A stretch of DNA of 64,000 nt from Escherichia coli (GTDB lineage: Bacteria > Pseudomonadota > Gammaproteobacteria > Enterobacterales > Enterobacteriaceae): NCBI RefSeq assembly GCF_003018235.1, contig NZ_CP027437.1; one strand, 5' to 3'. Positions within the stretch are counted from its first letter, which is position 1. Every line of letters begins with the position of its first letter. A program made the position numbers. Below, piece by piece: positions 62,001 to 64,000 of this stretch.

Positions 62001-64000
62001 TGACATGCAGCAGCGTCAGCGTGATGTTGCTGCACTCGATGCAAAATACACAAAGGAGTTAACCGATGCGAGAGCTGAAAATGAAACTCTGCGCGCTGAT
62101 GTTGCCGCTGGTCGTAAGCGCCTGCAAGTCGCCGCCACCTGTGCAAAGTCAACGACCGAAGCCAGCAGCATGGGCGATGGAGAAAGCCCAAGACTTACAG
62201 CAGATGCTGAACTCAATTATTACCGTCTCCGAAGTGGAATCGACAAGATAACCGCGCAGGTCAACTACCTGCAGGAGTACATCAGGACGCAGTGCTTAAA
62301 ATAATTTTAATTTCACTGAAATTTAATACGTGACTTTCAGGAAAATGCCTCGCAGATGCGGGGCATTTTTGTACAGGTATTTCACCGCGCACCGCAGCGC
62401 ACTCAACCACGTCGAACCAAACCCTTTGGAATGAGCCTTTGAGTAGTCAGTTAGTGCTGGTGAGCCTTGACGGGCTGATCTCCTATGCAGCAAAGGTTCA
62501 TCTCAAAGTAAGGCGAACGCTATGACAAACCAAGATTCTATAGACCTATCTGATCTTCGTGGAATGGTCAGTTTTCCAGACAAAAGGTAATCACCATAGT
62601 CGTATGGCTATGAATCTTGTTGCTGCAGATAAGCATTTTGTGATTGAAGTGGTCAAATCTCTCAAATGCAGTAAAATGCAGTGCGCTATAATTCAATAAC
62701 GGAGGGAGTAAGGAGAAGTCATGAAAGATCAAGATGTTAGGTTCGCGGTGCATCATAAGCTTTTGAAAGAATCGCATTTAGATCCAGACTGCCTTGTGGT
62801 CGATGAATTTTCCATATCCCTTGGCGCCAGTAGAGCAGACATTGCTGTAATAAATGGTGTTATACACGGGTACGAGCTCAAAAGTGAATATGACTCTTTG
62901 GAGCGTTTGCCTCTTCAAATCAAGCATTATTCTTCTGTAATGGACAAGGTTACTCTTGTCGTAGCTGAGAAACACCTTGAGGGAGCATTAAAGTTAATCC
63001 CAGGTTGGTGGGGCGTTAAAACGGTTTCTGTTGGGCCAAAAGGCGCCATTCTTATAAAGCACATGCGTGGAGAAAAGCTTAATCGAAACCATGACACATT
63101 GATGCTCGCTCAATTGCTTTGGAAAGATGAATGTATCGACGTACTTGAACGATGGGGCTATTCCAAAGGAATCAAAAGCAAGCCCCGATTTGAGTTATGG
63201 AATATTATTGCGGAAAATATTCCAATAGCGAATCTCAGGCTTGAAGTCAGAACAGCCTTAAAGAAACGCGTAGGCTGGAAAGTTAAGGCTTGGCAGGCTG
63301 AGTCTGCGCCAACCAATAAAGCTGTCTCACGACTAACGTAATATGGTGCGTATGTGCAACTTTACGCCATTCTTTAGAGCCGCCGGATTTGTTAGCGCCT
63401 AATGATCTTTGGTAAATGTAATCATCCCCCCAACTAAATTTGGAGCCAAAGACTTGATACTCTGGCGAACTAACAAGGGTAGTACATAAGTTTTTAGTTT
63501 GGCCCCATCCATTTCCTTTAACTGCGGTACCTTTTACAAAGATCCATGAGGTATCGTTCGAATATCTCACTGAGACATACTGAGACATGAAGCGTGGGTC
63601 TACGCTCGTAATGGTAGAGCTAGCGGTGGGATAATCACTAAAACTTGGCGTTCTTCCATTGCTAAAATTCTGTACTACGTACATCCAAAGATCGTATTCA
63701 TGGCGCGGAATATGATGAACTTGATGTTGCGGTATCCCTGCCTGTGATGCCGGGTATGCGGTTGAAGATAAAATCAAGTTTCTCCACGGAGCTTGGCCTG
63801 ATAATGTGTTGACCATGCTTAATGCTTGTTGTTTTAAACTATCAGTTGCGTTTTGAATATCTCCAAAATCAATGATTACATCAATTAAACTAGGATGAAT
63901 ATTTAAGTGGTTAACCAGACTTGTGAATTGGTGCCATGTCTGGGGGGTGATAGATATAGCGAGCCCATTGATTAAGTTGCGTTGAACAGCATGTATATAG

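Follow-up and report, generated by a model that had tools for sequence, protein, structure and literature searches.

What are the two genes that a Shiga toxin 2 (Stx2) prophage of Escherichia coli carries between its lysis and packaging genes, and what might they do for the lysogen? The prophage lies in the window, the whole 64,000-nucleotide stretch of contig NZ_CP027437.1 (RefSeq assembly GCF_003018235.1) analysed here; it is lambdoid, and the two genes, a cII-like gene and a Beta-family gene, sit between Rz and the small terminase gene, convergent and overlapping at their 3′ ends. An earlier reading made from the letters alone (the sequence-only reading) had proposed a two-gene moron at this site, consisting of a nuclease-like gene and a partner that it could not place. 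Here, we report that both proteins belong to named families with members in validated phage defence systems. The pair is best explained as a two-gene accessory module (moron) that was horizontally acquired by the prophage and is a minimal Beta/cII form with prophage-encoded anti-phage or abortive-infection activity; by analogy with its relatives, we put the probability of this explanation at roughly 0.55.

The cII-like gene encodes 206 amino acids (aa) and, as the sequence-only reading had it, overlaps a convergent gene (both open reading frames are placed in Table 1). The proposed resemblance to the sce7726 family proved to be membership: the protein scored 184.1 bits against NCBIfam NF033832 (sce7726_fam; cutoff, 70 bits) across profile positions 1 to 182 of 184, and also matched the PADLOC model “cll” (4.3e-31) and phrog_984. 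Pfam PF26915 (Phage_P4_cII) is precomputed on P0001, a cluster representative that shares 99% identity with the window protein, and on all other listed homologues; an older Pfam copy, predating PF26915, gave no match for the cII-like protein. In the AlphaFold2 model (predicted local distance difference test [pLDDT], 89.6), an alpha-beta-beta-beta-alpha-beta core with the restriction-endonuclease-like fold is followed by a helical C-terminal domain, dividing the protein into a PD-(D/E)xK nuclease domain (residues ~1 to 120), a helical domain (126 to 182), and a disordered tail (188 to 206). The last 19 residues, coded within the overlap, are unconserved and modelled as disordered. The proposed D-x10-E-x-K motif is present with a spacing of x11 rather than x10 (D40-x11-E52-x-K54), and none of E29, D40, E52, and K54 varies among 31 diverse sequences, including P4 cII. 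Because of the predicted fold and these four residues, the nuclease reading stands as far as fold and motif go, and the protein is a predicted PD-(D/E)xK nuclease with an intact motif. Its closest structural match is 3dnx, an uncharacterised protein, and one database record names a homologue “DNA repair protein MmcB-like.” From MmcB-like and other PD-(D/E)xK nucleases, it differs in its extra C-terminal helical domain, in the obligate pairing of its gene with a TIM-barrel gene, and in lacking a credible sequence-level match to any solved protein; its profile found no credible relative among Protein Data Bank (PDB) sequences, where the sole match was TAF1, a TFIID subunit (helical domain; E value, 0.002; weak and implausible).

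The partner had been described as at least 240 aa long. Its frame is open for 238 codons within the window, and the complete gene, retrieved beyond position 64000 from a 100%-identical E. coli record (L001, strain CFIAFB20140388; window coordinate = L001 coordinate + 53299), encodes 355 aa from a start at window position 64350. Contrary to the sequence-only reading, it can be assigned to a family: the protein matches Pfam PF14350 (Beta_protein) over its full length (E value, 2.7e-55; model positions 1 to 342 of 342), and the 238 residues inside the window match a Beta profile made in this analysis at 2.3e-80. Among PADLOC models, PD-Lambda-2_C (PDLC03984; 7.5e-32) fits better than P4 “beta” (4.2e-10). 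None of the NCBIfam models matched Beta proteins from five clades, the Beta profile found no credible relative among PDB sequences, and a domain search of Beta returned no methyltransferase domain or cofactor-binding motif. The structure model is a confident TIM barrel (pLDDT, 96.4). Conserved residues D77, D161, R216, and D239-Y240 lie at or just after barrel strands, and R262, Y263, S306, G308, D309, W328, R329, and H336 are conserved in the C-terminal extension. Active sites of TIM-barrel enzymes usually lie at or just after the barrel strand ends, and because the conserved residues sit at such positions, we infer an enzymatic role; Beta may be an enzyme rather than a passive antitoxin.

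The two genes travel together. A cII-seeded scan (one genome per species) gave 80 loci from Proteobacteria, Firmicutes, Actinobacteria, Chloroflexi, Elusimicrobiota, candidate-phyla bacteria, and one archaeon, 78 of which have a beta gene, always convergent; of the other two, one breaks off at the end of its contig, and in the second the cII-like gene stands alone. These 78 loci, the window locus, and P4 make up 80 beta/cII pairs (L001, L002, and L004 to L083). The 3′ ends overlap in 77 of the 80 pairs, by 4 to 110 bp (most commonly 44 bp), with each stop codon inside the other gene. When the profile-aligned C-termini of the two proteins are placed on the DNA, their median overlap in the 80 pairs is 17 bp, and this spacing varies little from phylum to phylum. 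In the E. coli clade, 13 to 26 bp separate these C-termini, and the overlap of the genes here is long because the cII-like protein has an unconserved 16-residue extension. An independent Beta-seeded scan of viral contigs, with a pattern from a 12-sequence Beta subset (the 59-sequence alignment being too diverse for a pattern scan), yielded 35 loci (L096 to L130), 31 of them assessable. A convergent cII-like gene was found in 29 of the 31 (overlapping in 26), and 28 of these 29 carry neither gop nor a PD-lambda-2_B-like gene. The two samples together comprise about 115 loci, in which the two-gene Beta/cII form is the common form; the published three-gene systems therefore look like elaborations of a Beta/cII core.

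The pair occurs in 17 of 50,697 phage records, and its carriers include prophages, P4-like satellites without gop, plasmids, and Gordonia and Mycobacterium phages, with chromosomal and archaeal contexts as well. Escherichia phage Rac-SA53 (KU052037) and Gordonia phage Powerball (gp33/gp32) encode members of both families from convergent genes that overlap by 41 bp and 89 bp, respectively. These pairs lie in accessory regions of temperate phages, and, as at the locus here, no third conserved gene accompanies them. They differ from the pair here in genome position, and the Rac-SA53 proteins are only 54% (cII-like) and 30% (Beta) identical to those in the window; both pairs are known from annotation alone, and no functional data on either were found in the literature. 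In one viral contig, beta is split by an insertion of ~1.3 kb (L120, 6030 to 7325), and its C-terminal fragment overlaps the cII-like gene by 20 bp.

The insert after Rz is AT rich and discrete, as had been claimed. Its GC content is 0.34 to 0.44, compared with ~0.50 to 0.53 in the lysis and head genes, and phage PhiR12_1, which has both flanks in common with the prophage, holds ~0.5 kb at the site versus ~2.4 kb here. The unit common to Klebsiella, Edwardsiella, and Pectobacterium corresponds to window positions 62629 to 64363 (1.73 kb; ~76% identity) and consists of both genes, ~90 bp 5′ of the cII-like gene, and only ~12 bp 5′ of beta. A 46-aa open reading frame (62559 to 62699) was rejected as a third gene, since most of it falls beyond the stretch conserved in the other genera. 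In Klebsiella, the pair follows a lysis cassette and precedes the terminase in an unrelated phage backbone, and a non-Stx prophage (L131) carries the pair at the same Rz/terminase site. The E. coli locus itself recurs at at least 99% identity over 1.7 kb in 125 of 5,426 complete E. coli genomes (~2%), Stx prophages among them. The insert thus has the properties of a lambdoid moron, namely, absence from related phages, deviant GC content, defined boundaries, and a conserved upstream region (putative promoter). In that region, the sequence-only reading had pointed to a promoter-like tataat and a strong Shine-Dalgarno sequence; both are present, and about 50 to 60 bp that hold the promoter-like hexamers (~62645 to 62692) are almost invariant among E. 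coli, Klebsiella, Edwardsiella, and Pectobacterium, in which the genes are ~76% identical. We infer promoter activity for this conserved region from its sequence.

Two validated defence systems contain relatives of the pair. P4 gop-beta-cII protects against lambda and P1, and its beta and cII genes are non-essential in P4 (Rousset et al. 2022, PMC9122126); Gop is described as toxic without beta, and Beta as neutralising that toxicity (Ghisotti 1990, as cited in PMC9122126). Expression of the phage gene orf184 leads to cell death through gop-beta-cII (Silas et al., bioRxiv 10.1101/2023.04.06.535777). The P4 order is gop (+), beta (+), cII (−), so that beta and cII converge as they do here, and both pairs occupy an accessory hotspot of a mobile element near the packaging site. 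Both Beta proteins are 355 aa long (21% identity; E value, 3e-7), and the cII proteins are 27% identical (E value, 1e-18). The differences are that the cII-like protein has 206 aa here and 264 aa in P4; that the two genes share 59 bp here but stand 27 bp apart in P4, with an annotated terminator in the gap; that the carrier is a lambdoid prophage here and a satellite in P4; and that the locus here lacks gop, which encodes a small membrane protein, the reported toxin. A search for gop gave no match in the locus, the whole window, or the 115 related loci, and a match in P4 only; 5′ of beta, there is no open reading frame of >50 aa. The locus thus has the convergent Beta and cII components of gop-beta-cII and not the Gop component.

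PD-lambda-2 has three components: A, which is HigB-like; B, an Xre-peptidase that is toxic on its own; and C, which resembles P4 beta and is needed for defence. The system protects against lambda-vir by abortive infection, and Vassallo et al. (2022) refer to Beta as “a P4 phage antitoxin” (PMC9519451). The Beta protein here corresponds to component C, and components A and B are missing: HigB-like A and the Xre-HTH/ImmA-IrrE peptidase B, the toxic component, were matched neither in the locus nor in the window as a whole; positive controls in other loci were recovered (B, 2.5e-84 and 7.4e-140; A, 1e-37). The published description has three components and no nuclease, unlike the pair here. In the genome sample, a B-like gene of 390 to 500 aa stands directly 5′ of beta in 23 loci (the two tested match PADLOC PD-Lambda-2_B at 2.5e-84 and 7.4e-140), and a HigB-like gene stands 5′ of B in candidate-phyla loci L053, L061, and L078 (L053, the one tested, matches PD-Lambda-2_A at 1e-37). 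These three loci, L034, L056, and ~20 more PD-lambda-2-type loci have a convergent, overlapping cII-like nuclease gene after Beta; many natural loci of this type therefore hold a predicted nuclease that the three-component description does not mention. Judged by homology, Beta/cII is the core of P4 gop-beta-cII and also accompanies many PD-lambda-2-type loci. In the sphingomonad loci L056 (8901 to 9371) and L034 (8895 to 9383), the gene 5′ of the PD-lambda-2_B-like gene encodes 157 to 162 aa, is not HigB-like, and matches the PADLOC candidate PDC-M63A (6e-10).

Homology with gop-beta-cII and PD-lambda-2 makes the anti-phage role suggested by the sequence-only reading plausible. By analogy with these relatives, the pair would be expressed from the prophage and would shield the lysogen from other phages, probably through abortive infection; the cII-like predicted nuclease would be the effector, cutting nucleic acid, and Beta would be the partner that restrains or activates the nuclease or senses infection. 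The transcripts of the two genes would run antisense into each other, which could couple their expression. No structured RNA or terminator was found in the 59-bp overlap on either strand (z scores, +0.65 and −0.50), so each transcript probably continues antisense into the other gene. Since the cII-like gene is co-directional with the late operon in three phage contexts, late transcription would, hypothetically, raise cII-like mRNA and oppose beta mRNA.

Several points weigh against a defence role of this kind. The toxic part of the validated systems is Gop or PD-lambda-2B, both absent here, and no requirement for cII has been reported in those systems; at least one B-plus-Beta locus (L127) has no cII. 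The Beta fold match is to a generic TIM barrel and points to no chemistry. The support for antisense coupling consists of the geometry and the unstructured overlap, and promoter-like hexamers, to one of which the sequence-only reading had pointed, are not above chance (3 seen, with 5.8 expected in shuffled sequence). The pair had also been taken to be uncharacterised; this does not apply to its relatives, P4 gop-beta-cII and PD-lambda-2, but it does to the two-gene Beta/cII form, for which no experiment was found in the literature. Nor was a published mechanism found there for gop-beta-cII or PD-lambda-2. A wider proposal is conceivable, although we would not wager on it: the convergent, 3′-overlapping Beta/cII pair might be an ancient, self-sufficient two-gene immune module in which the TIM-barrel enzyme controls or signals to the nuclease and mutual antisense sets the balance, with gop-beta-cII and PD-lambda-2 as elaborations.

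The pair could instead stabilise the prophage as an addiction (toxin-antitoxin-like) module, in which Beta would check a toxin, the cII-like nuclease, and no primary anti-phage role would exist. The neutralisation of Gop by Beta in the P4 account cited above, the antitoxin label given to Beta by Vassallo et al., and the spread of the pair over many mobile elements (prophages, P4-like satellites, and plasmids) are what such a module would lead one to expect, but convergent, separately promoted genes are an unusual layout for a type II toxin-antitoxin system, and no known antitoxin resembles a 355-aa TIM barrel whose conserved residues are enzyme-like. Anti-phage phenotypes have been measured for related systems, and addiction and abortive infection can coexist; we consider addiction in place of defence unlikely. 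If Beta were to modify host or prophage nucleic acid while the cII-like nuclease cut unmodified incoming DNA, the pair would resemble restriction-modification, for which we see little chance. A specific TGT/DpdA-like identity for Beta was rejected, since its scores are no better than generic similarity to dozens of unrelated TIM barrels (identity, 8 to 10%). The cognate methyltransferase of type II restriction-modification is absent, the sole partner being a TIM barrel without a methyltransferase domain, although a modifying activity of Beta itself is conceivable. The profile and domain searches of Beta described above, with no match to solved proteins and no methyltransferase or cofactor-binding motif, also stand against modification, and the relatives act as abortive-infection or cell-death systems, not by direct immunity.

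A service to the phage’s own life cycle, whether lysogeny control (compare the historical name cII), DNA processing, or recombination, is similarly improbable. In P4, the gene received a c-type name, the three phage contexts in which the cII-like gene runs with the late operon are independent, and both the uncharacterised 3dnx and the MmcB-like label of one homologue would be compatible with such a function; against it, P4 can do without the genes, closely related lambdoid phages lack them, and few phage records contain them; they also turn up in chromosomal, plasmid, and archaeal contexts. This absence, rarity, and variety of context argue for accessory cargo and not a core phage function.

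Table 1. Positions of the genes and sequence elements in the 64,000-nucleotide window
Feature	Window position	Strand	Description
stx2 A	55452-56402		Shiga toxin 2 A subunit
stx2 B	56422-56685		Shiga toxin 2 B subunit
Terminator-like hairpin	62341-62370	both directions	GC rich, with an A run on one side and a T run on the other; Rz stop at 62304
Conserved upstream region	62629-62720	+	Homology with the Klebsiella, Edwardsiella, and Pectobacterium modules begins at 62629-62654
Promoter-like TGGTCA-16-TAAAAT	62650-62677	+	Putative, from sequence
TATAAT	62687-62692	+	From sequence
Shine-Dalgarno AAGGAG	62710-62715	+	5 nt before the ATG
cII-like gene	62721-63341	+	Open reading frame, 206 aa, ATG start; sce7726/Pfam PF26915 Phage_P4_cII family
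3′-end overlap of the cII-like and Beta genes	63283-63341	both	Antiparallel, exactly 59 bp
Beta-family gene, 3′ two-thirds	63283-64000 and beyond	−	Codons 118-355; stop codon at 63283, and no other stop in the 238 codons up to the window edge

The order of the prophage genes is Q, stx, esterase, holin, lysozyme, Rz, the cII-like/beta pair, the small and large terminase subunits, and lambda-like head genes. Because stx2 A and B are in the window, the prophage that carries the pair is an Stx-converting phage; its stx2 genes are annotated as Stx2j in NZ_CP076709, a record 99.95% identical. The DNA 3′ of Rz (62305 to 62525) is backbone common to P22-like phages, so the hairpin within it (RNA fold, −22.6 kcal/mol; z score, −4.9; matched by 0 of 200 shuffles) probably belongs to the phage backbone and not to the insert. 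A second terminator-like hairpin, on the + strand just 5′ of the beta start, lies past the window edge at L001 positions 11094 to 11106 (equivalent to window positions 64393 to 64405). The two hairpins bracket the module, at the places where read-through from the convergent genes would be expected to end. The otherwise identical L001 prophage has an IS200C between its DUF826 gene and its holin gene (L001 positions 5881 to 6585); this element is absent from the window, where its site would fall between 59885 and 59890. Between the holin and lysozyme genes, a 209-aa open reading frame (60143 to 60772) corresponds to a frameshifted hypothetical gene in the matching record.

The pair is not categorically new, since its families are named in Pfam and NCBIfam, PGAP labels both genes in E. 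coli, and homologous systems have been validated. What is new relative to the literature found is the recognition of one Beta/cII core, with a conserved convergent overlap, in both gop-beta-cII and many PD-lambda-2 loci; the two are filed as separate systems, and many loci have this core of TIM-barrel Beta and cII-like nuclease in common. PADLOC has no separate model for the Beta/cII pair alone. If gop or the PD-lambda-2 A/B genes are obligatory for defence-finding tools, the pair would escape them. The two-gene form is the simplest setting for the role of Beta, for the nuclease as effector, and for the strict tail-to-tail overlap. Should the pair exclude other phages, it would also matter for superinfection and for how Stx phages spread.
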